Shown here: positions 1 to 53,171 of the stretch, in pieces
Numbering within the stretch: the stretch's first letter is position 1
Layout: every line of letters begins with the position of its first letter
Assembly (NCBI GenBank): GCA_003514055.1
Contig: DOSG01000008.1
Span: forward strand, 45,895-109,894
Reading direction: 5' to 3'
DNA length: 64,000 nucleotides
Source of the DNA: Candidatus Yanofskybacteria bacterium
GTDB lineage: Bacteria; Patescibacteriota; Minisyncoccia; 2-02-FULL-40-12; GWA2-44-9
Program-made: the position numbers and the translations under genes
The notes under the pieces: model-generated
The model's database searches: none
Seen by the model: only the letters and a program-made list of their open reading frames with translations
What the model was told of the DNA's origin: nothing

Positions 1-704
1 ATTTCAGCTGTGCGTTTTTTCTGCTCAGCTATTTCTTCTTCTTTTCGCCAAGACTGGACTTCAGGATCTCGCCACTCCCAGATAAGTTCTACAAAATTCA
101 TAAGAAAGTCGAAGGCTATCTGTTCATGATGAGTTCGTTCGCGTTGGCGTGGTAGATTCGGAATTTCGAAATCATCAGCGTAGCGTCTCTGATGGATACT
201 AAAGAAGCCGAGGATGGCATTAAATATTCGCTCCGATTGAATAGTCTTATTCCAAAAACTACCAAAACTATCATCTCGTCGATATTCAATCACTTTTCGA
301 GTTTCTGCGCCTTTAAAAAAATTCTGAACAAGCATCTTGAATGCTTTTTGCGCCACGATTTGTCGAATTTCGCCCTCAGACCTTACTACTTCATTTCCAT
401 TTTTATCGTAGCCTATCCTAAACTTCGGCGGATCTAGCGGAGAATTGGATCTGAGCAAGAAATGGCCGTCAGCAACTAGAAAGTAAAATATCAGGCGATC
501 GATATCGTCGTAATCTGGCTCACCGTATGTTGATGCAGTAAGACTAACTTCAAAACCTTCATGAAGTAGCCCTAGCAATTCACCAAGAGTCTTGGCAGTT
601 TGCCACATCTTCAGCCATTCATGAAAGTTCTTAGTCGGCCTCACTTCTCTTTTTGAAAGATCACCGAGTACGGCTATGTCGTACTTCTGTTGTGGTTCGA
701 ACAC
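1..704 (-). CDS. hypothetical protein, 3'-truncated by window edge; probable GTG start at 704
   Basis: Minus-strand frame open from 704 to position 1 (>=234 codons). It is absent from the ORF track only because it runs off the edge. GGGAGG lies 5 nt upstream of the GTG. No family recognised. Confidence 0.45.
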   Translation of the reverse strand, partial: MFEPQQKYDIAVLGDLSKREVRPTKNFHEWLKMWQTAKTLGELLGLLHEGFEVSLTASTYGEPDYDDIDRLIFYFLVADGHFLLRSNSPLDPPKFRIGYDKNGNEVVRSEGEIRQIVAQKAFKMLVQNFFKGAETRKVIEYRRDDSFGSFWNKTIQSERIFNAILGFFSIHQRRYADDFEIPNLPRQRERTHHEQIAFDFLMNFVELIWEWRDPEVQSWRKEEEIAEQKKRTAE

Positions 705-832
705 CGTAGCCTCCCATGTTATGCCCCGCTCTGTGGCGGAACCGTGGAGCTATCTCCACCGATAATCTACGCCGTCTAGGCGATTTGTCAATAAGCAAAT
801 TGAGGGGAAAATAAAGCCGAGCAATTGCTCGG

Positions 833-1117
833 TCAGTCTATATGCACCTGACTTGGGATGACTTTTGGTTTTTTTCTCCTAATATCAGCCACTCGTAGAC
901 CCAGATCGCAACCGCCTCTTATGGCCACGTAATTTATGAAATCTACTACGACAGCCTCAGCGATTCGATTAGCTCTAGCTCTATTTGCATCAATCCAGTC
1001 GAAGTCAGATTCGGCTAAGCCGTTCTGATAGCTATTCCTGTAGATTGACGGAAGGATCCCTTTTAAATGAGTTCGGGCGTCTTCTTCTAACATGTCATGA
1101 AGCTCTTTTTTCGTCAT
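833..1117 (-). CDS. hypothetical protein (94 aa)
   Basis: ORF track only; no motif recognised; co-directional with the edge gene. Confidence 0.35.
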   Translation of the reverse strand: MTKKELHDMLEEDARTHLKGILPSIYRNSYQNGLAESDFDWIDANRARANRIAEAVVVDFINYVAIRGGCDLGLRVADIRRKKPKVIPSQVHID

Positions 1118-1183
1118 AGCGCCCTCGAGTACTCAGACTAGATTATCACTACAATATTAATAATCAAGCGGGCTTGATCACAA

Positions 1184-1219
1184 TTACAAAGAGCGCCCCG
1201 AGAAGGGCGTTCTTTGTAA
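1184..1219. repeat. GC-rich palindromic mini-element, intergenic copy; also the terminator hairpin 13 nt downstream of ctpA
   Basis: TTACAAAGAGCGCCCC-GAGAA-GGGCGTTCTTTGTAA. Arms match the copies at 6933, 30017 and 52719. Confidence 0.6.
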
Positions 1220-1231
1220 TCTACTGAGTTA

Positions 1232-2506
1232 TTATCTTAACAATTCCAAAGCCTTGTCGAGCTGAGGATCTTTCCCTTTCTCGCCTATAACCAATGCTTC
1301 GAGTTCTTTTGGATCTTCCGGCAACATAACCTTGATATCGGCTTCAATCCCTTTTTCAGAAATCGATATACCATTAGGTGTCAGCCATTTGGCAATCGTA
1401 ACTTTTAACGATGAGCCGTCGGAAAAGTTTTCCAATTCTTGGACAGAACCCTTTCCAAACGACTTTTCGCCTACTAATTTTATTCCTCTATTATCATGCA
1501 GTGCTCCGGCTAAGATTTCTGATGCCGACGCTGATCCGCCATTCATCAATATCACCGTAGGTAATTTGAGCAAGCCGTTACCATTACTCTTGAATTCGTT
1601 TCTCGTACCATCGCCGAACTGCTCCATGACTACAATCTGACCTCTATTTAAGAACCACCCGGCCATATTTATGGCAGAATCCAACAACCCACCCGGATTA
1701 TTTCTCAAATCCAAGATTAGCCTAGTAGCCCCACTCTTTATTATATCTTGTGCTGCCTTGTTGAATTCAGATTCAACATTCTGATTGAAGGAGTATATCT
1801 GCATGTAGGCGATTTTATTACTACCCTCTTCAAAATATTTCAGATCGACTGTCGGAATCTTGATCGTATCTCTCGTTAATTCATAATCTCTTAATTCTCC
1901 ATTGGAAATCGACAATATAACTTTAGTTCCTTTCTTGCCACGAATCAAGTTTACCGCTTCATCCACGGACATTTCTTGGGTGCTTTTACCATTAATCTTA
2001 ACAACTTTATCTCCAGCTTTTATCCCAGCCTTATCGGCGGGAGTGCCTTTTAATGGAGAAACGACGGTTAAAACATTATTCTTTTTACTCAACTCTAGAC
2101 CAACACCGCCGAAAGATCCAGATATTTCTTCCTGGAATTTTTTGCTTTCAACAGGTTCAAAGAACGTAGTATAAGGATCTCCGGCGCTGTTCACCATACC
2201 CGCTATAGCACCGTAAAACATTTTTTCGTTACTAAGTTCACCCTTATCTACGTATTTCTCGTTTAATTTGTCCCACACCTGCCAAAAGAGTTCAAAATCA
2301 ATGTCTTTGTACTTAACCGCATCCTTATTTATCAGCCTAGCTACAACCGGTGAAGGTTCGTATTGGCCAATAAAATAACCGACTGCTAAGCCGATTAATA
2401 AGACGCCAACAAGCACTACTAAGCGCCACTTCGATTTAGTCCTAGATGCTTCTGGTTGTAATATTTGATTTTCTGATTCCATATTTTTTAAAATATTTGA
2501 TAGCAT
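1232..2506 (-). CDS. ctpA: carboxyl-terminal processing protease, S41 family with PDZ domain
   Basis: N-terminal TM; PDZ (GIKAGDKVVKINGKS); S41 catalytic block GGSASASEILAGAL and KGSVQ. Confidence 0.9.
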   Translation of the reverse strand: MLSNILKNMESENQILQPEASRTKSKWRLVVLVGVLLIGLAVGYFIGQYEPSPVVARLINKDAVKYKDIDFELFWQVWDKLNEKYVDKGELSNEKMFYGAIAGMVNSAGDPYTTFFEPVESKKFQEEISGSFGGVGLELSKKNNVLTVVSPLKGTPADKAGIKAGDKVVKINGKSTQEMSVDEAVNLIRGKKGTKVILSISNGELRDYELTRDTIKIPTVDLKYFEEGSNKIAYMQIYSFNQNVESEFNKAAQDIIKSGATRLILDLRNNPGGLLDSAINMAGWFLNRGQIVVMEQFGDGTRNEFKSNGNGLLKLPTVILMNGGSASASEILAGALHDNRGIKLVGEKSFGKGSVQELENFSDGSSLKVTIAKWLTPNGISISEKGIEADIKVMLPEDPKELEALVIGEKGKDPQLDKALELLR

Positions 2507-3260
2507 CTTTTATGTGCCATCTGGTTTCTTTTTTGAATAAAGCATCAAAGACATCGAAGCGACTCTTCGAACCTCTACGATGATAGTGATACATTTTAGA
2601 TTTAGGATAATAAATTACTCTGTATCCATTTTCCCAGAAGCGACGCGCCCAGTCAACATCACTCATATAGAGAAATAGATTTTCGTCCATTGAGCCAACT
2701 TTTTTTATAGCTTTTTTACTAACCATGATTGCTGAGCCCATCAACCAATCGGCATCAGTTTCTTTGAACAGATCGTGATCGTGCATTAAGAACTGCTCAA
2801 CTTCTTTTTTAAATAATCCTATTCTGCCGATAAAACTTCGACGATATATGGTAGTTAGTGGCGAATAGAATCTAAAGTATGAATCCTGATGACTGCCGTC
2901 AAAATTTAATAATTCCGGGCCGACTATGCCAATTTTAGGATCATCTTTAATCAATTCATACAAAGTCTCTACTGCACCTTCAAGCGGAATTATATCGGGA
3001 TTGATTACAAATACGTAATCGTTAACGCTGGCCTGAAGGCCAGCGTTAACGCCTTTGGTATAACCGATATTCTGGTCGAATGCCACTAATTTTATATCCT
3101 TAAACTCTTCATTGACGACATTCCGGGTCTCTATACTGCTGGCGATATCGATAACTATGATTTCGTATTTAAAATCTGCGCGAACAATACGTTTAAAAGA
3201 TTTCAAACACAGTCGTAATAGCGCCGGATTCTTATAATTGATGACGAGTATCGAAAGCAT
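2442..3260 (-). CDS. glycosyltransferase family 2
   Basis: N-terminal ILVINYKN...IIVIDIASS GT-A signature; start overlaps the LCP stop (TAATG coupling); its 3' end overlaps the ctpA start by about 40-65 nt. Confidence 0.85.
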   Translation of the reverse strand: MLSILVINYKNPALLRLCLKSFKRIVRADFKYEIIVIDIASSIETRNVVNEEFKDIKLVAFDQNIGYTKGVNAGLQASVNDYVFVINPDIIPLEGAVETLYELIKDDPKIGIVGPELLNFDGSHQDSYFRFYSPLTTIYRRSFIGRIGLFKKEVEQFLMHDHDLFKETDADWLMGSAIMVSKKAIKKVGSMDENLFLYMSDVDWARRFWENGYRVIYYPKSKMYHYHRRGSKSRFDVFDALFKKETRWHIKDAIKYFKKYGIRKSNITTRSI

Positions 3261-4300
3261 TAATTTAAAGTTTCAGCGAAAAACTTTTTAAATAAATCGA
3301 AATTCTCGCCATTTGGAAGTAACACGTAAATTGCATCGATGTATGTTTGATAAAGTAAATTCGCGGTGGAAATTACATATTCTTTGGGCATAGCCTTTTT
3401 CACTTGTTGATACAAGTTTATTAATTCCGACAAATTCCAAATATTCAAATCTGTTTTAATGTCGCTGCGAACGACACTTAGCATGCCAAAAGCTTTAAGA
3501 GGATCTGAGGTCAAATTAGCAGTCATGACTTTGTCTTTAATAGCCATTATAATTTCCTGTTGACGCCTAGACCTATCGAAATCGCTAGTTGAATACCTCG
3601 ATCGAGCGTAATAGAGCGCACCTTCACCATCGAGATGATTGAGCCCAGCCGGCAGATAGAAGCTATTCCCCCACTGGCTCTTCTCTTCAAATGGTTTGTC
3701 TAGGTATACGTCCACCCCATCTAGCTCGTCAACAATTTTCTTGAACGCTGTAAAATCAAAGACTATGGCATTATCTATATATATTCCAGTCATTATCGAA
3801 AATACTCTCTTTGTAAAATCTAGCCCCTCTTTGCGACTAAGTCCATATTCATAAACTTCGTTTATCTTGCCCATCTTGTACTTGTCGATTTTTATGTAAA
3901 GATCTCGTGGGATAGACACCAACGATGACTTTGCGGTGGTCTTGTCGTAACTAAAAAGCAAGATCGTGTCGGTTAACATACCGCCTTGAATCGCGTCCGG
4001 ATCGTCGAGACCACGCATGCCTAATATTAAGATGTCTAAACGATTTGGGTCAGGCTTTGGTGTCGGATCGGTAGATATTGCGGCTACCGGAAATGACAAA
4101 ATGGCCGAGACACGATTCCAGAAAGGAACACTACCATCACTGGTAATGACAATCTCGTTATAAGCTAAGCCCAACATTAAAGCTCCGTAGCTCAAGGCTA
4201 CTATGGCTATAATTGAAACGCCTAGACCAAGTATCTTCTTCTTACTTGGCTGATTATTATGTCCTACGGGGTCTATAAAATTCATTTCTTTATTATTCAT
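3260..4300 (-). CDS. LytR-CpsA-Psr (LCP) family cell-envelope glycopolymer ligase
   Basis: N-terminal TM, then LILGMRG...DTILLFSYD...SIPRDLY LCP-domain motifs. Confidence 0.85.
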   Translation of the reverse strand: MNNKEMNFIDPVGHNNQPSKKKILGLGVSIIAIVALSYGALMLGLAYNEIVITSDGSVPFWNRVSAILSFPVAAISTDPTPKPDPNRLDILILGMRGLDDPDAIQGGMLTDTILLFSYDKTTAKSSLVSIPRDLYIKIDKYKMGKINEVYEYGLSRKEGLDFTKRVFSIMTGIYIDNAIVFDFTAFKKIVDELDGVDVYLDKPFEEKSQWGNSFYLPAGLNHLDGEGALYYARSRYSTSDFDRSRRQQEIIMAIKDKVMTANLTSDPLKAFGMLSVVRSDIKTDLNIWNLSELINLYQQVKKAMPKEYVISTANLLYQTYIDAIYVLLPNGENFDLFKKFFAETLN

Positions 4301-5357
4301 ACCATTCGCGCATTCGAGCTGGCGCGGCTACAGCTCGTCTCATAATGGCATTTCTCTTCTTGAGCATTTTAGGAATATTTTTTAATACCACGCTAACCTC
4401 GCTTAAAACGGCTGGCTCATAGATAAGGAGGTAGGCCAGCATGGTTAATTCTCTTTTCGCTATATAAAAGAAGTCCTTGAGGCAATTTATTATATACTCA
4501 TTCTTGATCATTGTAAACCTAAGATTTTTCCATTCAAGCCGGCGCTTATTGAGCGGTATCTGCTGTCTACTTTTTCTGAATTCGGTGAAACCGCCAGACA
4601 ACGATTTTGTTGTCTGGCGATCATGCCAAGCCAAAACTCGTGGAGCATATATCTGCTTCCAGCCGAATAGGTTCATGCGCCACGCAATATCTAAATCCTC
4701 GGCATACCAAAAAAAATCGTGATCGAATATCTCTCCGGCACCTGACGGATTGATTTTGATTCTTAAACTAGCAAACGCTTCCTTTCTAAAAACAGGCACC
4801 GCACCTTCAACGCCGAATATCTCTTTCTGCGTGTTGTATTGGCCCGTGTCTTTCTCGCCATGGCCGATATTAACTATCCTCCTCGATTTGAATATTTTAA
4901 AACCACATGTGTCTATGACGTCGGTACCCAGCCTAAGATTACGACCTTTCAGCTGGTCCAAATCAAATCGGTAGACTTTGGCCTGAAGTGCACCAATATC
5001 GGCGCTTACTTCCATGACCCCCATCGCTTCAAGTAGAAAATTCTTATCTAATATCACGTCTACGGAAAGCACGACCACATATTTCCCAGCTGATATTTCA
5101 AACAACTTTTCCTGCCCAGCCCACATGCCTATGTTTTGTGAATTTTCAATAACTTGAGAATTCACAAAAGCTAATTCTCCAAGTTCTAATTGCCAGTCTT
5201 TGATTATTTTCTTTGTTCCATCGGTTGAATTATTATCCCAGATATTTAGCTCAATTAGATCATGCGGATAGTTCAAGTTCTTTATCGAATCCAAACAATG
5301 GCGAATATATTTTTCGCCATTAAAAACCACTAGATTTATTGAGATTCTACTTGACAT
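4293..5357 (-). CDS. glycosyltransferase family 2
   Basis: INLVVFNGEKYI...DNNSTDGT GT-A N-terminus; 8-nt overlap with the LCP start. Confidence 0.85.
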   Translation of the reverse strand: MSSRISINLVVFNGEKYIRHCLDSIKNLNYPHDLIELNIWDNNSTDGTKKIIKDWQLELGELAFVNSQVIENSQNIGMWAGQEKLFEISAGKYVVVLSVDVILDKNFLLEAMGVMEVSADIGALQAKVYRFDLDQLKGRNLRLGTDVIDTCGFKIFKSRRIVNIGHGEKDTGQYNTQKEIFGVEGAVPVFRKEAFASLRIKINPSGAGEIFDHDFFWYAEDLDIAWRMNLFGWKQIYAPRVLAWHDRQTTKSLSGGFTEFRKSRQQIPLNKRRLEWKNLRFTMIKNEYIINCLKDFFYIAKRELTMLAYLLIYEPAVLSEVSVVLKNIPKMLKKRNAIMRRAVAAPARMREWYE

Positions 5358-5411
5358 CTTATTCCTAACATTATATCCTTTTTCCAGTCATTTTCCAAGA
5401 GAAGCAGAAAG

Positions 5412-5723
5412 ATGGATGAGCTTACTCCAAGCCAAGAAATTATAAAGAACGATTTAATCGCACATTTCAAAGAAGACGCGACATCGTCACTGAATCAAGT
5501 AGTCAATTTTCTTGGTCAAAAGCAAACTTGGTATTGCATAAATTTCGACCATAGATATCTCAACTTTGCCAAGCAAGACATGATAATGGTGCTAAAATAT
5601 TTGATAGCCCAGAGTATATTGGAAATATCCGATTGGAGGACATCTCCCGATATGAATGCTACATTTGGATTTGTGCTGGAACCAGTTTTTTCTCTTTCCG
5701 AAACATTTCAAGCCCAGGCTTAG
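5412..5723 (+). CDS. hypothetical protein (103 aa)
   Basis: ORF track only; weak RBS; convergent 4-nt overlap with the Wzy-like gene. Confidence 0.3.
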   Translation: MDELTPSQEIIKNDLIAHFKEDATSSLNQVVNFLGQKQTWYCINFDHRYLNFAKQDMIMVLKYLIAQSILEISDWRTSPDMNATFGFVLEPVFSLSETFQAQA

Positions 5724-7285
5724 TCTGGGCCTTTGTTTACCAAAAGAGCGGCAGAAACGGCAAGCATAAGAAAGGCGCGTTCGTCGAATATAGCTACGTC
5801 AGTCATTAAGTAAGCGAAGACCCACGGAATGAATAATAGACTTGCACCATAATAAGTTGCCAGCGTGGTGTCCGCCTTAGAATCGATGAATTTTCTATAG
5901 ATTATTTTGAATAACTCAAACAAGAATGCACATAGCGCAATCAGGGCAAAAACGCCCATCTCCGCGGCTACGTGCAAATAAATATTATGCGCCGAAGATC
6001 CAGCCTTAGACAGTTTAATATCTTGAGACAACACGACTGGATAATTACCAATACCCACTCCCAACAATGGATGGTCCGCTATAGATACTAAACTTTTTTT
6101 CCAGATTTCTATTCTTTGAGCGTTAGAAGTCTCACCAAAATCTATGACTGATCTAATTCGATTACCAAGCATGCTCCAATCCCCTTTTGATAATAAAAAT
6201 TGAGGCGAAGTAAATATCGGATAGGCAACAAAGAACATCATAAAAAACAAAATTATGTAGCTAGAAATGAATTTAAAATAACTCACCTTAGTTTCTTTCT
6301 TAATCGTCATATAGATAATCACGCCGATAGCAAGCGCAACCACTCCCACACTCGCCGCCCAGAAACCTCTGGTGCCAGTTAAAATTACTGCTAGGAATAT
6401 TATCGGCACCCAAACCACGAATAGCTTAGTCCTTGTTTTAATCAAATCTTGGAATTTCGCACCAACATCCATTTTGCGCATAGTCCAAGCAAAAATAGCT
6501 GGCATACCCAGAAGCAGAAATATTGGGAAAGAATGAGAATCTGGAAAAAGAGAAAACATCCTCAACGAAAGTTGCTCTCCGTAGTAAGCGAACCAAGTAT
6601 TACCAACCCTCACGGCAATATCGCACCATTGCTGACCAAACTGATTGCATTGGATGTTCTCACCCCATATGCGCATGAATTGATAAATATCAATAAAGTA
6701 ACTTGAGGCCAATTGTAAAAAACCAATAATCGTAACTAGTAAAACCGGAATCGTTAAGGCTCGAATTAGTCGCTTCGAAAAATCGCTACTTCTCGTGGTT
6801 AGATAGTAAACTGGAAAGCCAACCAAGCTTAAATTAGTAAAATAGATAATTCTTTTGATAGCGGCCGCCTTATCCGAAGCCATGGACACTGAAAGTAACA
6901 TCAGCGCATAAAGTGCAACGAGAGCCATTGCGTACAAAGGGCGCCATTGTACAAAGGCGCCCTTTGTAAAGATTTTCGTGGTTTTAAGCCGGGACAAAAA
7001 CCATTTCACGAATAATATGACTGAGAATATCCTCCAAGAATTAAAGTTATCAAAGCTAGAACTGAATGGAATCGCCAAAAACATCGGGATTGAGGCCGCA
7101 AAAAATATTACTCCATCCTCCAGCGGTGCTAAGATCAAATACAAAGCTAACATGGCCACTAAATATAAAACGAATTCGCGAGGTATAAGACCAGAAATAA
7201 CCAGAAAGAAGCAGATAACCTCAGCCACGTAAACTATTCCGCCAGTTTTTTTATTATTTAACATTCTCAAAAAATGATTTAGCAA
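5720..7285 (-). CDS. O-antigen ligase/Wzy-like polytopic membrane protein
   Basis: More than 10 predicted TM helices; SSAHNIYLHVAAEMG motif typical of the Wzy_C / O-antigen ligase family. Confidence 0.75.
   Translation of the reverse strand: MLNHFLRMLNNKKTGGIVYVAEVICFFLVISGLIPREFVLYLVAMLALYLILAPLEDGVIFFAASIPMFLAIPFSSSFDNFNSWRIFSVILFVKWFLSRLKTTKIFTKGAFVQWRPLYAMALVALYALMLLSVSMASDKAAAIKRIIYFTNLSLVGFPVYYLTTRSSDFSKRLIRALTIPVLLVTIIGFLQLASSYFIDIYQFMRIWGENIQCNQFGQQWCDIAVRVGNTWFAYYGEQLSLRMFSLFPDSHSFPIFLLLGMPAIFAWTMRKMDVGAKFQDLIKTRTKLFVVWVPIIFLAVILTGTRGFWAASVGVVALAIGVIIYMTIKKETKVSYFKFISSYIILFFMMFFVAYPIFTSPQFLLSKGDWSMLGNRIRSVIDFGETSNAQRIEIWKKSLVSIADHPLLGVGIGNYPVVLSQDIKLSKAGSSAHNIYLHVAAEMGVFALIALCAFLFELFKIIYRKFIDSKADTTLATYYGASLLFIPWVFAYLMTDVAIFDERAFLMLAVSAALLVNKGPD
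6933..6969. repeat. GC-rich palindromic mini-element, in frame inside the Wzy-like CDS
   Basis: TACAAAGGGCGCC-ATTGTACAAA-GGCGCCCTTTGTAA. 12-bp perfect stem. Translated in frame as TKGAFVQWRPLY. Confidence 0.6.
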
Positions 7286-8360
7286 AACTGCTCCAGCTAA
7301 GCCTTGGAATTAATTCTTTGTATCTATCCTTACAATATTTTCTTTTTTGCTCGTCTTTGAGTCCCCTATCAATAGCATCGGCAATCTTTTCTGAGGTACC
7401 GTTTGCAGCAAAAAAAGCAGCATCGTTAAAAAGTTCGTGATTCAAGGCGTTGTCCATCACAACTACTGGTACGCCATATGAAGCCGCTTCCACCGGCGGC
7501 AAACCGAACGCCTCTGATTCAGATACATAAACAACCAATTCGGCGCTAGAATACAATCTTGAGATTTCGTCATCAGCTACATAGTCACGATAATTAATTC
7601 TTTCACGGCCAAATCTATTATTCATTTCTTTAACCATGCTCTGAATTATCGGTCTGGGATATTTATCCCGGCCCACCAATATTAATCTCAGATCTGGATA
7701 TTTGGGGGCTATCTGACTAAAAGCTAATATCGTTTCTTTGGCGTGGCGTCTTGCAAACATTTGGCCCACGTATAATATGTACAGGCTATTCGATTTAAAA
7801 TCTTGTGCAACTTCTCTAGCCCGATGGGACCCAAGACGTGAAACAAATATCTTATTTGGTTTTATTTTGTATAGTCTGGCAACCTCATCTTTCGATGCCC
7901 CCGATATGGCCATGATTTTATAAGCGAACTTCGCGGCCCAGTTAGTAAACATCCCATAGGCTAATCTATATTTGAACGGCAACGTACCTTGCTTGTACTC
8001 ATAGTAAACATCGTTGGTCAGTATCACTACGGCTTTCCCTAAGTATAATGGCGGCATCATATAGGCCGGGAAAAACATTCTATCGACGCCGTCGAGCATT
8101 GCCTTAACTGGCATTAAAATGTGATAAAAAATATTAAACGATTTTAGGGACTTCCAGCCGACGATTCTTTTGACGAATATTGGATTCTTCAGAACTTCGT
8201 CGTCGGGGATGAATTGATTGAAATATAGATATAATTTAAATTCTTTATGCCATTCTATATTTTTCTCATATTCTTTAAGTAAATTTAAAACCACGTGGCC
8301 AACGCCCCATCTAGACTTTGCATCCTCTAAATTTTCGCACTCAATCCCTATTTTAAGCAT
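7254..8360 (-). CDS. glycosyltransferase family 1 (GT4)
   Basis: C-terminal EAFGLPPVEAASYGVPVVV GT-B motif. Confidence 0.85.
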   Translation of the reverse strand: MLKIGIECENLEDAKSRWGVGHVVLNLLKEYEKNIEWHKEFKLYLYFNQFIPDDEVLKNPIFVKRIVGWKSLKSFNIFYHILMPVKAMLDGVDRMFFPAYMMPPLYLGKAVVILTNDVYYEYKQGTLPFKYRLAYGMFTNWAAKFAYKIMAISGASKDEVARLYKIKPNKIFVSRLGSHRAREVAQDFKSNSLYILYVGQMFARRHAKETILAFSQIAPKYPDLRLILVGRDKYPRPIIQSMVKEMNNRFGRERINYRDYVADDEISRLYSSAELVVYVSESEAFGLPPVEAASYGVPVVVMDNALNHELFNDAAFFAANGTSEKIADAIDRGLKDEQKRKYCKDRYKELIPRLSWSSFAKSFFENVK

Positions 8361-8372
8361 GTCGTATTATTA

Positions 8373-8400
8373 TTGACACTCGAGGTTATCATCATATACT
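8373..8400 (+). promoter_or_regulatory. candidate sigma70-like promoter (TTGACA-16-TATACT) for the small gene at 8427
   Basis: TTGACA at 8373-8378 and TATACT at 8395-8400; GGAGG SD at 8417-8421. Confidence 0.35.
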
Positions 8401-8426
8401 ACGTGAAGATCTTTGTGGAGGCCATC

Positions 8427-8648
8427 ATGGCTAACAAAGCATTACTGCCGGGAAAAAGATTTGAGCTAAATAACCATTTAGGACAATCCTATCCCTTGCC
8501 ATGCCCAGGATGCAATACCATACTGCAACGCGATAACGTATCATTTGAATCTTGCGTTGAAGAAGGCCTGGTCGAACTTATCAATGGCGTGCTAGTACAG
8601 GAATTACATATTCCAGTCTGTCCATTCAGCTGGGTCGGTAATAACTAG
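8427..8648 (+). CDS. small Cys-containing hypothetical protein (73 aa; the ORF-track start at 8373 is a TTG extension)
   Basis: ATG at 8427 has GGAGG 6 nt upstream; CPGC...C...CPF cysteine pattern. Confidence 0.4.
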   Translation: MANKALLPGKRFELNNHLGQSYPLPCPGCNTILQRDNVSFESCVEEGLVELINGVLVQELHIPVCPFSWVGNN

Positions 8649-8666
8649 GGGCTAAGTAGCCTCTTT

Positions 8667-9608
8667 TTAATTTCCTATTTTGCCCATTTTATCTTTATAA
8701 AAATCGAATACTCCGTTTAGTATTGCCTGCGACCTTTCTTTTTCGATACCAAATATCAATTTGATTATCTGCTTTTTAATAATCCAGATGCTCCAGGGCC
8801 ACAATAATATTTGCACCCACCACGGACCAAATTTACGATTGAAATAAAGAGCGTTACGGTAATGATATCTCAACAGTAACGGAGACCCTAATTTTTTGGT
8901 TGAGGCCGATACCTTATGATTAATAGATACTCCTTCGGCTATGCCGATTGAAAACCCGGCTTGAGCCGCAGTCAATGATAAGTCGGCATCTTCAAAGTAC
9001 AGAAAATAGTCCTCATCCATTAGGCCAATCTTTTCAAACACATCACTAGATATGGCCGCGCCACCACCGATGGCGTAGATATTAGAAACACAATGGCCGC
9101 GTTGAATACAATGGCTGTCTTTTAGGCCGCAAAGACAGCCATTGTATTCAGGCGTATATATGTGTCCGAGGGTAGGCTTTAGCCACTTCACCAAGCCAGC
9201 ATAGGCCGTATGCCCACCCTCATCCAAAGGTATTGAAACTACCCCCCTTTTGAGCCTCAAAACGGCCTTTAGGCGAGCGATAAAGTCCTTTTCAGGTGTT
9301 GTATCGTTATTGATCAAAATCACCCATTTTGACCCTCCGGCCAAGGCCTTTTTTATGCCCACATTACACCCCCCAGAAAAGCCGAGGTTTTGACCATTTT
9401 TAATAACCACCAGGTTCTGCCAACCATGCTTTTTTTGATACTCATTGAGCCTATCTATGTCGGCCACGTTAGAACCATTCTCAACTACAATCAATTCGAA
9501 ATCAGAATCGGTTTGATTCTTAAATATATTTAGAAGATTAATCGTGTCTTCTGCTCCGTTATAATTTACAGTTACTATTGATATCTTCATCTTATCCATT
9601 AATACCAT
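8667..9608 (-). CDS. glycosyltransferase family 2
   Basis: KISIVTVNYNGAEDT...ELIVVENGS GT-A signature. Confidence 0.85.
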   Translation of the reverse strand: MVLMDKMKISIVTVNYNGAEDTINLLNIFKNQTDSDFELIVVENGSNVADIDRLNEYQKKHGWQNLVVIKNGQNLGFSGGCNVGIKKALAGGSKWVILINNDTTPEKDFIARLKAVLRLKRGVVSIPLDEGGHTAYAGLVKWLKPTLGHIYTPEYNGCLCGLKDSHCIQRGHCVSNIYAIGGGAAISSDVFEKIGLMDEDYFLYFEDADLSLTAAQAGFSIGIAEGVSINHKVSASTKKLGSPLLLRYHYRNALYFNRKFGPWWVQILLWPWSIWIIKKQIIKLIFGIEKERSQAILNGVFDFYKDKMGKIGN

Positions 9609-9616
9609 AATACTAC

Positions 9617-9641
9617 AAAAAGCGGCGAAACGCCGCTTTGT
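9617..9641 (-). terminator. rho-independent terminator hairpin
   Basis: AAAA-AGCGGCG-AAA-CGCCGCT-TTG. Lies 10 nt downstream of the 9648 gene stop. Confidence 0.5.
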
Positions 9642-9647
9642 TGATAT

Positions 9648-9968
9648 TTATGCCCGAGAAGTTTCTGCGATATAGCTCTGCTCGAAAGCAAACCACATCT
9701 CTCTCCACTCTCCGTTAAGACGGATCCTAGAAAATACGAGCATATCGGGCGGATCACCACGCCCCTGACAATTAAAATCAGACTTACTGTAAATTTTCTC
9801 ATGTTCCATTTTATAAACAGTACAACCGATTTCATTGCCGTAAAATTGATACCCAAGTTGCTCTGGGTTCTTAGCAATCTGAACGGCCGATATTAGGTCT
9901 TCAGTCATGAGAACTGGATCAGATACTTCTCCATGGCCAGTATCGTGCGTTGCGATGACAATGAACAT
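9648..9968 (-). CDS. hypothetical protein (106 aa)
   Basis: Strong SD (GGGGAGG) 5 nt upstream of the ATG at 9968; no family recognised. Confidence 0.55.
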   Translation of the reverse strand: MFIVIATHDTGHGEVSDPVLMTEDLISAVQIAKNPEQLGYQFYGNEIGCTVYKMEHEKIYSKSDFNCQGRGDPPDMLVFSRIRLNGEWREMWFAFEQSYIAETSRA

Positions 9969-10054
9969 GTAAGCCTCCCCTGCTTAGAAACTGAGCCGAT
10001 AATCTCACAAATCCCGGCATGCGTCAATTAACTCAAGGTGTTTAAAAATAGCGG

Positions 10055-10098
10055 GAGGAACTTTCGAGAGGCTCTCGCAGGAACGAAAGTTTTCCCCC
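10055..10098. repeat. hairpin sharing the GAGAGGCTCTCG core with the 17446 element (partial copy / terminator of the GT4 gene)
   Basis: AACTTTCG-AGAGGCTCTCGCAGGAA-CGAAAGTT followed by TTTCCCCC. Confidence 0.4.
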
Positions 10099-10102
10099 TA
10101 TT

Positions 10103-11167
10103 TTACTCGATTATCTCCAATATAGCATTTCTAAAATTTTCGAGAGAGAATCTCTTGGCTGATTCTTTGATAAGATTTGGGCTATATTTGTGATAATTAT
10201 CATTGAGCCTTCTAATGCCATCTGCCAAAGCTTCTGGTATCGGATCGTCAAAAAATTCTCCAGTAACCCCCTCTTCGATGATCTCCATGGCACCGCCCCT
10301 ACGTAGTGCCACTACTGGCTTGCCATAAGCCATAGCCTCAACCGGAGCAATCCCGAAATCTTCTTCTTGCGGCATAATGAATGCCCGACAATTCTTGTAA
10401 TAGCCAGCCAAAAACTCATCAGAAACGAATCCCAGCAAATCAACATTATCGCCAGCCATCCTTTTTAATCTCCTCTTGGTCGGCCCATCGCCGATTATGA
10501 TCAAGGGTAATTTTAGCTTATTAAAAGTATCAATAACCAAGGCAATATTTTTATAGTCATAAAGCCTCGAAACAATCAGATAATAATTCTCAATAGTCGG
10601 CACAAAATCTGATTCTATGTTGTAGGTATTCACTGGTGGGAATATAATCTTTGAATCTCTGTGGTAGTATTTTTTTATCCTATCTTGAACATTCTTCGAT
10701 ATGGCGATAAATTCATCGACTCTATCCGAGGCCAAGCGATCCCATATTCTTAAATAGTGTCTGGCGACTTTGCTAATTAATCCCGATCTTTCGTAGTCTG
10801 AATTTCTATCCCATAAAAATCTTGTTGGGCTATAGCAATAACAAATATGCCTAGTTTTTGGTTTTAGAACTAATCCCTTTGAGAAAATTACAGATGATGA
10901 GATTACTAGGTCAAATTCAGACAAATCAAATGACTCGATAATGCTAGGCATTATAAATGCTAAATATGGGTAAGCGGTCATCACGAAGGGAAGTCTCTGC
11001 AATCTGCTAGCTACAATTTTAGTATTAGGCAAATATCTACTAGTCAGCTTTTTCTTGTGAAATAAGGTATAAATCGGCGCATTGGGAAATATTTCATGCA
11101 AAGCAATAAGGGTGCGTTCGGCACCCCCCAAATTTAGAACCCAATCATGTACCAGCGCTATTTTCAT
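10103..11167 (-). CDS. glycosyltransferase family 1 (GT4)
   Basis: MKIALVHDW...GGAERT N-terminus and GIAPVEAMAYGKPVV C-terminal motif. Confidence 0.85.
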   Translation of the reverse strand: MKIALVHDWVLNLGGAERTLIALHEIFPNAPIYTLFHKKKLTSRYLPNTKIVASRLQRLPFVMTAYPYLAFIMPSIIESFDLSEFDLVISSSVIFSKGLVLKPKTRHICYCYSPTRFLWDRNSDYERSGLISKVARHYLRIWDRLASDRVDEFIAISKNVQDRIKKYYHRDSKIIFPPVNTYNIESDFVPTIENYYLIVSRLYDYKNIALVIDTFNKLKLPLIIIGDGPTKRRLKRMAGDNVDLLGFVSDEFLAGYYKNCRAFIMPQEEDFGIAPVEAMAYGKPVVALRRGGAMEIIEEGVTGEFFDDPIPEALADGIRRLNDNYHKYSPNLIKESAKRFSLENFRNAILEIIE

Positions 11168-28912: not shown

Positions 28913-28958
28913 CCCTGGCGAAGCAAGCAGACAGCTGCTCTTCGCCAGGGCTTTTTTT
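28913..28958 (+). terminator. rho-independent terminator
   Basis: CCCTGGCGAAG-loop-CTTCGCCAGGG-CTTTTTTT. Confidence 0.7.
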
Positions 28959-31900
28959 ATTCCATCATTTTACGTAGCGCACAATATTCGCAGTCTTTTT
29001 CTTTGCATCCCTTATCCCAAAAATCCAGATTCATTATTTCTTGAGATGTTTTAATGACTAATTCTTTAAGTTCTACGACCTCATCGGACGTGACATAGAA
29101 ACTTTCTTTCTTATATCTCCCCTTCTCGTCCGGCTCTATGAAATCAATGTCACCCGATATCATTTTAAATTTCTTGCCTTCAGCATAATTATTCAATAAC
29201 AAATTGTAGAATACCAGCTGTCTTTTTATATCACCATTAGATGTTTGAGTAGTACCCTCAATTTCGCCACGAGTTTTCTGCCTACCAGTTTTATAATCAA
29301 CCACGTTCACCTCTCCCGAGTCATTCAGTATCTCAATTTTATCTATCTTACCAGTAATCCTAACGTCCGCGGCAACGACTATCCCTGGTATGTTGAATTC
29401 ATTCAAAAGATTAGCCCTCCAGTGACCAACGTAATTATCGTAATAACCAGAAAGCGATTTCTCTCCTTTCTGAAGCACTTCTTCAAAATCACTCTCCTTA
29501 AGGGGTTCTCTCTGTAAATATGTGACAAACTTACTCAATAGCATCTCTTTATTAGCTTCGCCTTCCTTGATTTTATCGAAGAAATCTTTGAGCGCACCGT
29601 GAATAGCTGTGCCATACATTTGATGCTTATCTTTGGCTTTTGGTATGCGTAACAGATTAGTATAGAAATACTGCCACGGACATCTTAGATAGTTGTTTAA
29701 GCCCGTAACTGATAACCCATTCTTAGTGAATAAGTCTTTTATGAATTCTTTGTCTTTTATACTTGTTCCAGATTTCACTTTTGGCGTAAACATAATTGTT
29801 CTGTCTCTTTCAAATCCATCTTCATACTCATCGGCAACGACGGTTTCTATGAGATCGGATTTAATCTCCTGGATAAATTGAGATGGTATCTGCTGCTTAC
29901 CGGAAAGTGCTTCCTGGGCATATGTAATTGTCACCAATTTCTTAGCTCGAGTTATGGCCACATAAAATAATCTCCTCTCGTCATCATTTCCATCATCATC
30001 TGCAAGATCCTTATCCTTACAAAGGGCGCCCCTGAGGGGCGCCCTTTGTAACCCAAGAGAATAGACCGAGGCAGGCAAAGACAACAGGTTAGTTCGCCTC
30101 TTATTACCCCAGTGGCCGTCAAAAGCATTCACTATATATACATATTCGAACTCCTGTCCTTTCGATCTGTGGGCGGTCATGAGTCTTATATTCTTTGTGC
30201 CCGATTGGCCTAAACTCTTTTTAATAAGTAGATTATGTATCTGAAGGGTGTCTATATATTTTATAAAATCGCGTAGATCGTAATCTTTGTGTTTCTCCAA
30301 CAATGACTTGATCTCGTTGAATAATCCATCCAATTTTTGCATCTTCTCAGCTACGTCCTTTTCTTTCATTATGTGAGCTAGAAAGCCAGACTCGTTTATC
30401 ATCAACTCGAAGAATTCCGATAAGCCCTGGTTTTTCTGAATCGTAGCCCACCCCGCTACTTTTTTATAGAAATCATGAATTTTATCGGCTGATTCGAGAT
30501 CAATACGCTCAAGATTCTTCTTATGTTTTACAATATCGTGTACGGGAATCTTTTCTTTGTTTGAATAGTTTATGATTTTGTATACGTCCAGCGGATCAAT
30601 ACCTAGAAAATCAATATGCATAGATTCGAGTATCCTAGCCTGAGATCCGAAATTATCCACCAGGCGCATTATCAGCATAAGCTTCTTAATATCGGGATCA
30701 GACAAAATATCCTGATCAGATTCTATAGCAAAAGGCACGTCAACTCTTTCAAGCATATCCGCAAAAGTAAAAACATCTTTATTGTCACGATACAGGATGG
30801 CAATCTCGGACGGCACAACGCCCTTAGAAATTAAATTCTTTATGCTTTTAGCCACGAAATACGCCTCAACTTTTGGCTTTGAAAAGGATAAAAGCCTTAT
30901 CTTTTCCTCTTCGTATCTCATATTAGCTTGTAGTTGCTTATCTCCGGCCAAGATACTATGGGCCGAATCTAGAATATTTTGAGTTGAGCGATAATTATCT
31001 TCCAAGACAATTAGTCTTGCCTTAGGATACAAATTCTTGAAATATAGAAAATTCTCTATAGATGCACCCTGGAATCTGAATATGGCCTGTTTCTCGTCGC
31101 CAACCACGAATATGTTTGGATTAGGATGGAAATTACAGAGTAGCTCCAGAACCTTATTCTGGGCATTATTTGTATCCTGGTGTTCGTCTACTAGCATGTA
31201 CTGGTGTTGCTCCTGCAATATCAATAAAAGATTCTGATTCTGACTGAGTTCTCGCAGAACCTCCATAATCATATCGCTATAGTCATACATCTTATTCTCA
31301 GCCAACTGCTTCTGATAAAATCCGTAGACCACGGCCAACTCCTTATTTTTTCGAATCTGCTTTTCAATTTTCTGATATTCACCCTTCATCTTACCCTTGT
31401 GTGCACCTTTCTCATGATAAAGATCGTCAATCGATGTAAAGTCTTTCTCCTCTTTCTCTACTAGCAGCTTAAATCCTTCCGGGCTAAGACCTTCGCGCTT
31501 AAGATCGTTTAAAGATTTCAAAATTTCTCGCGTGTAATAAAGCGGATCACCGAATGGCTTGAGATCCTTAAGAGGTAGGCCATCGATGGCTTTTTCGATG
31601 ATATTTATCTGATCAACTTCAGTAATATTCTGCGACCCAATGATTGCCGGAAATTCTTCGGGGTAATTTTTAATCACGTCATTGCAAAAACCATGAAAAG
31701 TACTTATCACCACCGAATATCCTGGAGTGCCAATAATCTCGACTAATCGTCTGCGCATTGAAGATACGCCAGATTCTGTGAATGTAAGCGCTAAAATATT
31801 TTCCGGTTCAGTATCGGTCTTCTTTAGTATATTAGCGATGCGCAAAGTCAAAATCTGGGTCTTGCCAGTTCCGGGTCCAGCCACCACCATCACAGGCCCA

Positions 31901-31983
31901 TCAACCGCATCCACGGCCTCCTTCTGAGCCTTATTGAGTTTTTTATATAGCTCCTCGAACTTCGCCATGATTAGATTATACAT
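28957..31983 (-). CDS. UvrD/PcrA-type SF1 helicase fused to a C-terminal Cas4/AddB-like PD-(D/E)xK nuclease with a four-Cys cluster
   Basis: Walker A MVVAGPGTGKTQ; UvrD motifs through about aa 700; C-terminal YLRCPWQYF ... CKEKDCEYC. Confidence 0.85.
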   Translation of the reverse strand: MYNLIMAKFEELYKKLNKAQKEAVDAVDGPVMVVAGPGTGKTQILTLRIANILKKTDTEPENILALTFTESGVSSMRRRLVEIIGTPGYSVVISTFHGFCNDVIKNYPEEFPAIIGSQNITEVDQINIIEKAIDGLPLKDLKPFGDPLYYTREILKSLNDLKREGLSPEGFKLLVEKEEKDFTSIDDLYHEKGAHKGKMKGEYQKIEKQIRKNKELAVVYGFYQKQLAENKMYDYSDMIMEVLRELSQNQNLLLILQEQHQYMLVDEHQDTNNAQNKVLELLCNFHPNPNIFVVGDEKQAIFRFQGASIENFLYFKNLYPKARLIVLEDNYRSTQNILDSAHSILAGDKQLQANMRYEEEKIRLLSFSKPKVEAYFVAKSIKNLISKGVVPSEIAILYRDNKDVFTFADMLERVDVPFAIESDQDILSDPDIKKLMLIMRLVDNFGSQARILESMHIDFLGIDPLDVYKIINYSNKEKIPVHDIVKHKKNLERIDLESADKIHDFYKKVAGWATIQKNQGLSEFFELMINESGFLAHIMKEKDVAEKMQKLDGLFNEIKSLLEKHKDYDLRDFIKYIDTLQIHNLLIKKSLGQSGTKNIRLMTAHRSKGQEFEYVYIVNAFDGHWGNKRRTNLLSLPASVYSLGLQRAPLRGALCKDKDLADDDGNDDERRLFYVAITRAKKLVTITYAQEALSGKQQIPSQFIQEIKSDLIETVVADEYEDGFERDRTIMFTPKVKSGTSIKDKEFIKDLFTKNGLSVTGLNNYLRCPWQYFYTNLLRIPKAKDKHQMYGTAIHGALKDFFDKIKEGEANKEMLLSKFVTYLQREPLKESDFEEVLQKGEKSLSGYYDNYVGHWRANLLNEFNIPGIVVAADVRITGKIDKIEILNDSGEVNVVDYKTGRQKTRGEIEGTTQTSNGDIKRQLVFYNLLLNNYAEGKKFKMISGDIDFIEPDEKGRYKKESFYVTSDEVVELKELVIKTSQEIMNLDFWDKGCKEKDCEYCALRKMME
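30017..30051. repeat. GC-rich palindromic mini-element, in frame inside the helicase-nuclease CDS
   Basis: TTACAAAGGGCGCCCC-TGA-GGGGCGCCCTTTGTAA. 14-bp perfect stem. Translated as LQRAPLRGALC. Confidence 0.6.
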
Positions 31984-35193: not shown

Positions 35194-36115
35194 ATTTAAT
35201 ATAGAAAGTATAAGTTTTATAGGTTTCGAATTTATTGAAAAATTGAGTCTTAAATCTTAGCGCTTGAGAATCGCTACCCTCAAGATCACAACTCTTGTAT
35301 CCGGCATTTTTTATCCAAACTAAATCTTCATATAAAAGAGCCACTCCCAAATCTTTAATTGAGTAATCGTGAATACCGATACTCGCTGACCATTCGCTCG
35401 GGTTATTCGACGTCTCCCAACCAGCATTAAATCCTACCGGCTTGTTATCGACGATCATAACTCTCGAACTTTTCGTACCGCCAAAATTATTATCTATCAT
35501 GTCATGATAACGCTCAGGGAGAACCGCTATGCCTACTCTGGCACGGCTAGCGAACCATCGATCGACTATGTCGTGCAAATCTTTTTTGGATAACTCGCTC
35601 GTTTCCGAGATTTTGACCGCATGCTCACGATTAAATTTGCTAAGAGCATTTCGTAGTTCTTTAAAATGACTCCCCGGTAATTCTGGATTCCAAGTGGCCA
35701 TATCTACTACCGGCCAAACAATTTCATAGTCTGGTTTAAACTTATCTCTGTAATTTTTGATCGCGAAATCTTGCACGGACTCACGAACATCAAGAAAATA
35801 TATCGTCATACTCTGACCTAAAACATAATCGCACAATTCTTTCAAAATTTTGTCCTGGACATTCGTTGGAGCGATGGGATCGGCTACTATCACGTGCTGA
35901 TTAGTCTTTTTGTTTACATAAAACCAAACGCCTTCGCCGTCTTTCCAGACGACGAAGGCGGGGCTACCATCGTTCGAACAGCTCTTTAACCAATCAAAAT
36001 TGTGATCAGGCGAATATCCAAATTTACTTATCGAAGATTCGATAAGTTCTCTTTCTTCTTCTACGTTATCTATTATCCTCACGTCCCAAGAGTAACAAAA
36101 TATTTTTTTAACCAC
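35192..36115 (-). CDS. hypothetical protein (possible acyltransferase-fold / DUF2156-like; unverified)
   Basis: ORF track; divergent from the ATP-grasp gene across a 109-nt AT-rich spacer. Confidence 0.5.
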   Translation of the reverse strand: MVKKIFCYSWDVRIIDNVEEERELIESSISKFGYSPDHNFDWLKSCSNDGSPAFVVWKDGEGVWFYVNKKTNQHVIVADPIAPTNVQDKILKELCDYVLGQSMTIYFLDVRESVQDFAIKNYRDKFKPDYEIVWPVVDMATWNPELPGSHFKELRNALSKFNREHAVKISETSELSKKDLHDIVDRWFASRARVGIAVLPERYHDMIDNNFGGTKSSRVMIVDNKPVGFNAGWETSNNPSEWSASIGIHDYSIKDLGVALLYEDLVWIKNAGYKSCDLEGSDSQALRFKTQFFNKFETYKTYTFYIK

Positions 36116-52076: not shown

Positions 52077-53171
52077 TCACTTTATTACTCCTCCGCCAAG
52101 AAGAAGTTGTCCCCTGTAAAAAACTGCCGACTGGCCCGAAGTTATAGCTCTAACTGGTTTATCGAATTCTAAATTACCATCATCAGATAAAATGGCTTTT
52201 TCCGATTTAGTTCTGTATCTTATTTTAACGTCAATTCGTGCTGGTAATTTAATTGGACCATTGACCCAGCTGAGATTGCTCACGACCGTCTTCGTTGACT
52301 TGAGATCTTTCTCGCTTCCAACGTAAATAATATTTTTCTCTACGTCTTTTCCGATTACATAAAATGGACCATCTCCAGATTTAATATCTAACCCATGACG
52401 CTGGCCGATAGTATAGTAGAAAACACCATCGTGAGTTCCAATGGCTTGGCCATCTTTTATTATCTCGCCTTTTTTCGATTTTATTCTTTTCAGCAAGAAA
52501 TCTTTCACGTTTAATGGTCCGATGAAACAGACTCCTTGGCTATCCTTCTTCCCCGCATTCGGCAATTTAAATTTTTTGGCTAGTTTCCTTATTTCTGGCT
52601 TAGTATATCCTCCCACCGGGAATAAGCACCTTTCTATCTCTTTTTCTTTCAGAGTCCATAAAAAATAAGACTGGTCCTTGTTCTTATCTTTGCCCTGATA
52701 AAGATAAGAACCGCAAGAAACAAAGGGCGCCTTTTTGGCCCCAAAGGCGCCCTTTGTGATTTTTCTTACATAGTGTCCGGTAGCGATGAAATCCGCGCCC
52801 TCACTCAATGCTCTTTTCAAGAATAAGCCGAATTTAATCTCCTTGTTGCACATTACGTCAGGATTCGGAGTCCGACCAAGCTTATATTCTCTGATCATGT
52901 AATCGGCAACTTGTTTTTTATATTCCTTAGTAAAATCCCAGGTCTTAAATGGTATATTCAGACTAGCCGCGGCCTTCGCGGCTTCTTCGCGTTCTTCTTT
53001 CCATATACAAAAATCACCGACATCGGGTTGCCATTGTTTCATAAAAACTCCGACCACTTTATGGCCTTCTTGCTTGAGCAGTGCCGCAGCCACAGAACTA
53101 TCCACTCCACCGCTCATGGCCACATAAACCAGCTTTTTGTTGTTCTCTGCTAATCTTGACATAATAGTCAA
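52077..53171 (-). CDS. mnmA: tRNA 2-thiouridine(34) synthase MnmA
   Basis: PP-loop VAMSGGVDSSV; KDQSYFL motif. Confidence 0.9.
   Translation of the reverse strand: MTIMSRLAENNKKLVYVAMSGGVDSSVAAALLKQEGHKVVGVFMKQWQPDVGDFCIWKEEREEAAKAAASLNIPFKTWDFTKEYKKQVADYMIREYKLGRTPNPDVMCNKEIKFGLFLKRALSEGADFIATGHYVRKITKGAFGAKKAPFVSCGSYLYQGKDKNKDQSYFLWTLKEKEIERCLFPVGGYTKPEIRKLAKKFKLPNAGKKDSQGVCFIGPLNVKDFLLKRIKSKKGEIIKDGQAIGTHDGVFYYTIGQRHGLDIKSGDGPFYVIGKDVEKNIIYVGSEKDLKSTKTVVSNLSWVNGPIKLPARIDVKIRYRTKSEKAILSDDGNLEFDKPVRAITSGQSAVFYRGQLLLGGGVIK
52719..52757. repeat. GC-rich palindromic mini-element, in frame inside mnmA
   Basis: AACAAAGGGCGCC-TTTTTGGCCCCAAA-GGCGCCCTTTGT, translated as ITKGAFGAKKAPFV. Confidence 0.6.

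Follow-up and report, generated by a model that had tools for sequence, protein, structure and literature searches.

We asked what the palindrome that directly follows a ctpA-like gene is, where it came from and whether it ends the ctpA transcript, as a first-pass annotation of this DNA had proposed. The DNA matches contig DMWZ01000010.1 of MAG GCA_003483035.1, a Parcubacteria/Patescibacteria (CPR) genome, and the MnmA that it encodes is identical to a protein of Candidatus Yanofskybacteria GW2011_GWF1_44. The window, by which we mean the whole 64,000-nt stretch of DNA analysed (G+C 41.6%), reads exactly TTACAAAGAGCGCCCCGAGAAGGGCGTTCTTTGTAA at 1184-1219, in agreement with that annotation's placement of the element between genes and after ctpA. 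Written as arms and loop, this 36-nt form is TTACAAAGAGCGCCCC-GAGA-AGGGCGTTCTTTGTAA, and one additional A/T pair extends it to an inverted repeat at 1183-1220 (ATTAC...GTAAT; ATTACAAAGAGCGCCCC-GAGA-AGGGCGTTCTTTGTAAT) whose 16-nt arms are 94% complementary. At 36-38 nt, with 15 of 16 positions paired, it has the form of the short, stable stem-loop (20-40 nt) of REP elements, and we list it, with no strand assigned, as a REP-type palindrome and a decayed copy of the TTACAAAGGGCGCC family.

The predicted RNA fold of the palindrome reaches -24.1 kcal/mol in the ctpA sense (z = -4.2) and -26.7 kcal/mol on the opposite strand (z = -5.1). Folded alone in the ctpA sense it gives about -21 to -24.5 kcal/mol, and an A.C mismatch lies within the stem of the ctpA-sense RNA. 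Shuffles of the window produced no match to its sequence. The palindrome is a genuine feature of this DNA and not a product of chance.

The palindrome after ctpA and its copies inside genes

The gene upstream of the palindrome (1232..2506, minus strand) encodes a 424-aa C-terminal processing protease with PDZ and Peptidase_S41 domains (Pfam), so the name ctpA is fair. Its stop codon lies at 1232-1234, and the palindrome begins 12 nt beyond it, not the 13 nt first given, within a 114-nt spacer between ctpA and a 94-aa ORF (833..1117, minus strand; ORF94). From the end of the palindrome to the ATG of ORF94 there are 66 nt. ORF94 has no Pfam match, is lineage-specific and sits between ctpA and a conserved 350-aa gene. 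A second small hairpin, UGAUCAAG-CCCG-CUUGAUUA, follows directly 3' of the palindrome on the ctpA sense (1161..1180, minus strand), and the minus strand of 1161-1240, with both hairpins together, folds at -29.1 kcal/mol. After ORF94, a consensus terminator scan picked out a terminator-like hairpin (817..832, minus strand; CCGAGCAATTGCTCGG then CTTTATTTTC). In an Rfam scan of the window only four tRNAs reached the gathering score, and the region 1100-1300 returned only hairpin matches far below threshold.

Orthologues of ctpA at 67-71% identity keep the gene order upstream of the gene, and at this distance the spacer is too divergent to align. The comparison of ctpA-downstream regions among relatives, which had been recommended as a check on the palindrome, gave a divided answer: at loci L124-L129 a hairpin does occupy the corresponding position, but these are terminator hairpins of unrelated sequence, and at L123 no hairpin follows ctpA and rplI lies 24 nt past the stop. 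In relatives without ORF94, ctpA directly precedes the orthologue of the conserved gene that here comes after ORF94 (window 1-704; about 350 aa, with 36% identity). Since ORF94 is missing from these relatives and the next gene is conserved, the REP-bearing spacer has been remodelled in this lineage, and ORF94 is a lineage-specific insertion that the REP borders on one side. Only one further assembly, GCA_003509745.1, was found to carry this ctpA; its sequence at the palindrome site is the same, and the strain comparison with it yielded no empty site, that is, no spacer without the palindrome.

The motif ACAAAGRGCGCC, representing ACAAAG(G/A)GCGCC arms, occurs eight times in the 64-kb window, as four palindromes, against an expectation of 0.33; this excess and the matching arms bear out the proposal that the post-ctpA palindrome and palindromes inside genes form one family. 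Besides the copy after ctpA, the family, whose arm is TTACAAAGGGCGCC, has three members within genes, all in frame and on the minus strand. One lies at 6933..6969 (FTKGAFVQWRPLY) in a Wzy_C (O-antigen ligase-like) gene (5720..7285), one at 30017..30051 (LQRAPLRGALCK) in a gene whose product joins a UvrD/PcrA-type helicase and a PD-(D/E)XK nuclease (28957..31983), and one at 52719..52758 (ITKGAFGAKKAPFV) in mnmA (52077..53171). None of the three introduces a stop codon into its reading frame, and each is read in a different phase; in the Wzy_C gene TAC replaces the terminal TAA in precisely the frame that TAA would close. Comparison with homologues places the peptide of the helicase copy within a variable-length linker ahead of the conserved DDERRLFYVA motif. 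At the mnmA site, E. coli MnmA has an 11-residue gap that exactly faces the palindrome peptide, and many Parcubacteria MnmA orthologues lack the insert. By these alignments the genic copies are insertions relative to homologues. No additional copy occurs in another 13 kb of this contig, which leaves four in about 78 kb in total, and the window's remaining 12 intergenic hairpins show no resemblance to the family.

The post-ctpA palindrome is closest to the helicase copy: their arms agree at 15/16 and 13/16 positions, and both have the TTAC/GTAA border and an inner CCCC extension. The two differ at four positions over 2 x 16, not at the two points first reported for the genic copies, and they also have different loops. 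All four differences are GC-to-AT transitions: two form a compensatory pair (G-C to A-T), one yields a G.U or A.C pair and one lies beside the loop. The TTAC...GTAA border, described earlier as common to all copies, is complete in the helicase copy, present on one side only in the Wzy_C copy and absent from the mnmA copy (AAAC...GTGA).

The window also contains other palindromes within ORFs, with mostly perfect 12-20-bp stems of unrelated sequence (3020-3051, 9103-9150, 52680-52711, 4590-4621, 5134-5169, 25625-25657 and 35929-35960), well above chance (for 12-bp stems, about 0.07 would be expected). Judged by eye, the palindrome at 3020-3051 is translated as VNAGLQASVN in an apparently conserved part of a GT2 domain, and at 52680-52711 the codons of the conserved MnmA KDKN motif pair with those of the preceding GSYL.

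Cognate palindromes around RAYT-type transposase genes

A query for the bordered pattern, TTACAAAGRGCGCC-N(0-20)-GGCGYYCTTTGTAA, in 241 M metagenome records returned a single locus, L131 (also represented by L132-L134). There ATTACAAAGGGCGCCTTTGCAAAGGCGCCCTTTGTAAT lies 18 nt past the stop of a gene for a Y1 (HUH) transposase (PF01797, Y1_Tnp), a second copy of the palindrome lies just upstream of the gene start and a third lies in frame within the gene. The copy flanking this gene in L132 has the same ATTAC...GTAAT ends as the palindrome after ctpA. The in-gene copy (L132 222-255, equivalent to L131 1082-1113) is translated as VQRRPLQRAPL and follows the N-terminal block of the protein, ahead of the HUH motif.

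The encoded protein, P0241, scores 40.5 bits against PF01797 (cut-off 23), and its sole NCBIfam match is 'REP-associated tyrosine transposase' (NF047646), at 52.5 bits and so below the cut-off of 80. Its clade carries the motifs PNHFH (an H-F-H triad) and YIHQNP, conserved across 33 homologues in which N85, H86, H88, Y146, H148, N150 and P151 are invariant; the Y1_Tnp fold, the HUH motif and the catalytic Tyr are thus all present in P0241. RAYTs are further recognized by an NP(L/V)(R/K)xG motif beside the Tyr and by a conserved N-terminal Thr (PMC2817692). Compared with the motif as written, P0241 has YIHQNPKVAGLV (NPKVAG), in which K and V are swapped, and the conserved N-terminal block of its clade, YYHIYNRGN, has no Thr. 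When a profile of the 33 homologues was compared with solved structures, E. coli TnpA_REP (4ER8) was the sole significant match, at a weak E = 0.0024, and no IS608 or ISDra2 TnpA chain appeared at E <= 1. This weak profile match places the clade nearer TnpA_REP than IS200/IS605 TnpA. The single-sequence search against solved structures with P0241 gave no match, and a homologue search returned thousands of relatives, many annotated as RayT or as Patescibacteria transposases and the majority located on very short contigs.

Two further, more distant RAYTs, on longer Parcubacteria contigs, are bracketed in the same way by palindromes of changed sequence. P0244 (63% identity) has ACAAAGGGCACC...GGTGCCCTTTGT on both sides. 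Around P0320 (52% identity) the palindrome is ACAAAGACTCCC...GGGAGTCTTTGT, of which a third copy occurs at a distance of 8 kb; the contig of P0320 is 256 kb long and includes a gene for a ctpA homologue (P0088, 68% identical). Across the three systems the foot ACAAAG...CTTTGT is constant and the core changes with the transposase: GGCGCC with P0241, GGCACC/GGTGCC with P0244 and ACTCCC/GGGAGT with P0320. The flanking arrangement was found in related metagenome contigs only, with the same palindrome at L131-L134 and co-varying variants at L135-L138 and L140-L141. In the window itself a tblastn search with the RAYT gave no credible match, and no RAYT lies in 13 kb of extra flank.

A REP-RAYT-REP unit in which REP and RAYT co-evolve is the defining arrangement of these systems (PMC2817692). 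Because a transposase gene here stands between two cognate palindromes that co-evolve with it, the best reading of the window's palindromes, the post-ctpA copy included, is that they are REP elements belonging to a RAYT lineage of Patescibacteria. The earlier view that the element is dispersed and probably mobile gains support from the same contigs. Several observations count against the REP reading: four copies in about 78 kb is sparse where REPs typically number more than 100 in a genome, the palindromes lack the GTAG/CGTC tag, the score of the RAYT-like protein falls below the NCBIfam cut-off, and the RAYT contigs are metagenome fragments that may come from another species.

Three other features of the RAYT loci were seen. 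In L140 the REP-RAYT-REP unit (9921-10680) comes right after a gene for a 2505-aa protein with no Pfam match (2392-9909), and a third REP copy (1965-2008) lies between divergently oriented genes. In L132, downstream of the RAYT/REP unit at about 880-960, GAGGAAAGTCCGAGC looked by eye like RNase P RNA, a reading dropped when Rfam gave no match at the gathering score. Finally, the closest RAYT homologues sit nearly all on contigs 1-3 kb long, which suggests that metagenome assemblies tend to break at REP/RAYT units, leaving too few of them in CPR MAGs.

Probable origin and possible function of the hairpin at the ctpA 3' end

We consider it probable (about 0.6) that 1183-1220 is a REP copy of the Patescibacteria RAYT lineage that serves as a 3'-end hairpin for ctpA, as terminator and/or exonuclease block. 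On this account, a RAYT-type transposase acting in trans would have laid down the copy in single-stranded form, after which it would have gathered the four GC-to-AT transitions that mark it as old. Lying 12 nt from the stop, the palindrome would be transcribed within the ctpA 3' end, where the RNA is predicted to fold into a stem-loop of -21 to -24 kcal/mol with a U-rich 3' flank. This hairpin could then act as an intrinsic terminator, probably partial and bidirectional, and/or block 3' exonucleases, and so separate ctpA from the lineage-specific ORF94.

The sequence around the hairpin is consistent with such a role. A consensus terminator scan flagged it (stem CGCCC/GGGCG; tail CTCTTTGTAA, with five T in eight), and a stem-loop followed by a U-tract after the stop codon is what an intrinsic terminator requires, the tail being weaker than in classic terminators. 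The U-tract, UCUUUGUAAUUGUG, is weak and interrupted, and 6 of 12 positions around the 3' foot are T; in both energy and T-richness the hairpin is nevertheless no outlier from the range spanned by the 12 other hairpins between genes in the window. No stronger hairpin is available between ctpA and the next gene. A similar role is further favoured by the second small hairpin at 1161-1180, by the terminator hairpins of other sequence that follow ctpA in relatives, by the remodelling of the spacer in this lineage and by the usual place of hairpins with the identical core, shortly past an ORF stop in at least 120 unrelated genomes. A consensus scan for a sigma-70-like promoter between the hairpin and ORF94 found none, as would be expected if transcripts read through in part and did not all end there. 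The interrupted U-tract, the A.C mismatch and the missing promoter all count against a strong terminator. A function as terminator or 3'-end stabilizer is plausible from these features, and we infer that a partial terminator or 3'-end stabilizer fits best. Such a role would match the one documented for REPs in E. coli, where REP325 is both a partial terminator and an mRNA stabilizer, and where REPs stabilize upstream mRNA and terminate transcription only partially and in part through Rho (bioRxiv 10.64898/2026.03.23.713779). Most REPs are located directly 3' of coding sequences, and a role at the RNA level has been proposed for them (PMC3733652).

The same features leave room for a REP that does not terminate at all, being either a neutral remnant or a post-transcriptional element that protects the ctpA mRNA 3' end or lowers CtpA by stalling terminating ribosomes. 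With a weak U-tract and no promoter-like site before ORF94, transcription may simply run through, and the E. coli precedent of stabilization with partial termination also speaks for this account. REPs at related loci also occur outside terminator contexts, for example at L140 1965-2008. Liang, Rudd and Deutscher (2015) reportedly found that REPs no more than 15 nt from a stop codon reduce translation through trans-translation, and the 12-nt distance measured here is inside that range. Against a REP devoid of terminator function, the compensatory substitution indicates that the stem has been kept, a weak point given that chance would produce it about one time in ten; moreover, the hairpin equals several other intergenic hairpins of the window in energy and tail, and nothing stronger lies between ctpA and the next gene. 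We regard this alternative as rather unlikely.

Doubt of another kind concerns ancestry. The hairpin could be an ordinary intrinsic terminator that ctpA acquired independently, its likeness to the genic palindromes reflecting convergence on an A-tract, GC-stem and T-tract design. A scan of a genome collection for the bare 12-nt arms, which served as a control only, found at least 120 loci in unrelated phyla, with one hairpin per genome, drawn from Pseudomonas, Streptomyces, Burkholderiales and others and having short loops and different flanks. Among the generic hairpins listed (at least 120), 88% lie within 60 nt past the stop of a long ORF, against 13% of random positions. The core AAAGGGCGCC...GGCGCCCTTT is, on this distribution, evidently a sequence that evolves repeatedly as an intrinsic terminator, and it is therefore by itself uninformative on relatedness and not diagnostic. 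As an observation in its own right, ACAAAGGGCGCC-loop-GGCGCCCTTTGT at L003-L122 is a striking case of a convergent terminator sequence.

Independent origin draws further on the departure of the post-ctpA copy from the family within the core, on its own loop and on the unrelated terminators that occupy the same place after ctpA in relatives. What sets the palindrome apart from the generic hairpins is its border: TT...AA was found in none of the at least 120 listed, whereas the post-ctpA copy shares ATTAC...GTAAT with L132 and TTAC...CCCC with the helicase copy. The other 12 hairpins that the window has between genes, moreover, are unlike the family, and four differences from the helicase copy that are all GC-to-AT transitions are what decay from a shared ancestor would leave. 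We therefore judge an independent terminator improbable.

That the palindromes never moved, having arisen in place by template-switch (snap-back) replication errors or as sites for DNA-binding proteins or restriction-modification, is largely refuted and very remote indeed: other long perfect palindromes of unrelated sequence do occur in ORFs (3020-3051, 9103-9150, 52680-52711), the first seemingly, by eye, in a conserved part of the GT2 domain and not in an insert, and each family arm does contain GGCGCC, but in-place generation cannot yield four palindromes whose 14-16-nt arms agree although their contexts are unrelated, nor can it account for one sequence standing to either side of a transposase gene elsewhere, and no operator-like placement relative to promoters was seen. 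Operator, restriction-modification and template-switch origins were rejected on anatomy alone, and a CRISPR repeat was rejected as there is no array.

Protein inserts and comparison with known systems

If the post-ctpA copy is a REP, it is one of a family whose other members in the window sit inside genes. We propose, tentatively and at somewhat less than even odds, that Patescibacteria have REP/RAYT systems of their own (foot ACAAAG...CTTTGT, no GTAG tag), whose palindromes survive in these gene-dense genomes mostly as in-frame inserts of 11-14 codons in protein loops, the proteins being essential ones such as MnmA, Wzy, a UvrD/PcrA-like helicase and even the RAYT, where they would cause part of the length hot spots of CPR proteins; between genes, as after ctpA, they would supply ready-made 3'-end signals because their sequence is terminator-shaped.

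An mnmA orthologue at L139 (87% identical protein) carries at 1560-1650, the same site as the window's mnmA copy, a REP (TCAAAGGGCGCC...GGCGCCCTTTA) directly followed by a palindrome of a second family (TTACAAAGACTGTCTTTG...AAGACAGTCTTTGTTA), both in frame and together making a 45-aa insert. The mnmA palindrome site is an insertion hot spot, and the double in-frame insert at L139 together with the further in-ORF palindromes of the window underlies our hot-spot reading for CPR proteins. An alignment of Parcubacteria MnmA shows a length hot spot at columns of about 150-185, where ATGHY(V/I)R is followed by anything from 0 to about 45 additional residues. A second one, at columns of about 270-310 after WQP, has low-complexity inserts such as SASNSKSQIRNSKQILNPKSEILN with the look of translated repeats.

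Taken alone, the palindrome after ctpA is routine REP biology, a mobile palindrome in a 3' untranslated region that may end or stabilize a transcript. What stands out is its context, in that REP/RAYT systems seem undescribed for the Candidate Phyla Radiation (our literature search found no paper linking RAYT or REPIN with it) and are here easily recognized and co-varying with the transposase, and it is unusual that most window copies are tolerated inside essential genes. For annotation, hairpins in CPR genes need be neither errors nor terminators; for assembly, RAYT-bearing contigs are nearly all very short; and for protein comparison, some CPR insertion hot spots may be scars of mobile elements. 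The family also offers a natural test of one sequence serving as transposase substrate, peptide insert and terminator.

Among known systems, intrinsic terminators and the SPRITE repeats of Streptococcus pneumoniae share with the post-ctpA hairpin a GC-rich stem with an A-rich 5' and U-rich 3' flank after a stop codon, and SPRITE is likewise a repeat family whose sequence is terminator-shaped (PMC10969869). Unlike a unique intrinsic terminator, the post-ctpA hairpin has a short, interrupted U-tract, terminates only putatively and is one of a family tied to a transposase.

Rickettsia provides the classic example of palindromic elements in frame, and its RPEs resemble the present family as palindromic inserts in unrelated housekeeping genes of a small genome that also occur between genes (PMC10969869). 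RPEs are, however, about 100-150 bp long with a conserved peptide module, whereas the present elements are 35-40 nt (11-14 codons), are read in three phases in three genes and are linked to a RAYT, so that the window palindromes depart from RPEs in both length and translation phase.

The IS200/IS605 family (IS608 and others) also combines a Y1 HUH transposase with subterminal hairpins in single-stranded DNA. In contrast to its distinct left and right ends, one short palindrome brackets the gene here, and among solved structures the clade profile matches TnpA_REP and neither IS608 nor ISDra2 TnpA. The target of IS608 is TTAC, of which the TTAC border is reminiscent, and we note this as a lead only.

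The differences from REP/REPIN and RAYT (TnpA_REP) systems of other bacteria are of sequence, number and host. REP superfamilies have a conserved terminal tetranucleotide, GTAG or CGTC (PMC3733652); the present family has no such tag, its borders being TTAC...GTAA, TAAC...GTTA or CAAC...GTTG and its foot (TT)ACAAAG...CTTTGT(AA), and its palindromes are almost perfectly symmetric, so that no orientation can be assigned to them as it can to REPs. Copies are few (4 in 78 kb), the host belongs to the Patescibacteria (CPR), and the RAYT lineage is distant from E. coli TnpA_REP (profile E = 0.0024). The claim that the element also lands between genes holds for the post-ctpA copy, but its framing is better reversed: a site 3' of a gene is the normal habitat of REPs, and intragenic REPs, notably in repair genes, are a known minority (PMC3733652), so it is the three of four window copies inside ORFs that are exceptional. 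The likenesses reach into the anatomy of the system (PMC2817692, PMC3116915, PMC3733652). In both, a hairpin-forming palindrome of 30-40 nt is dispersed in the genome. REPs lie as a rule just 3' of ORFs, as the post-ctpA copy does, with occasional copies in genes, notably those for DNA repair, and roles as terminator and mRNA stabilizer have been proposed or shown for them. In both, too, a Y1/HUH transposase gene stands between two copies whose core co-varies with the transposase.
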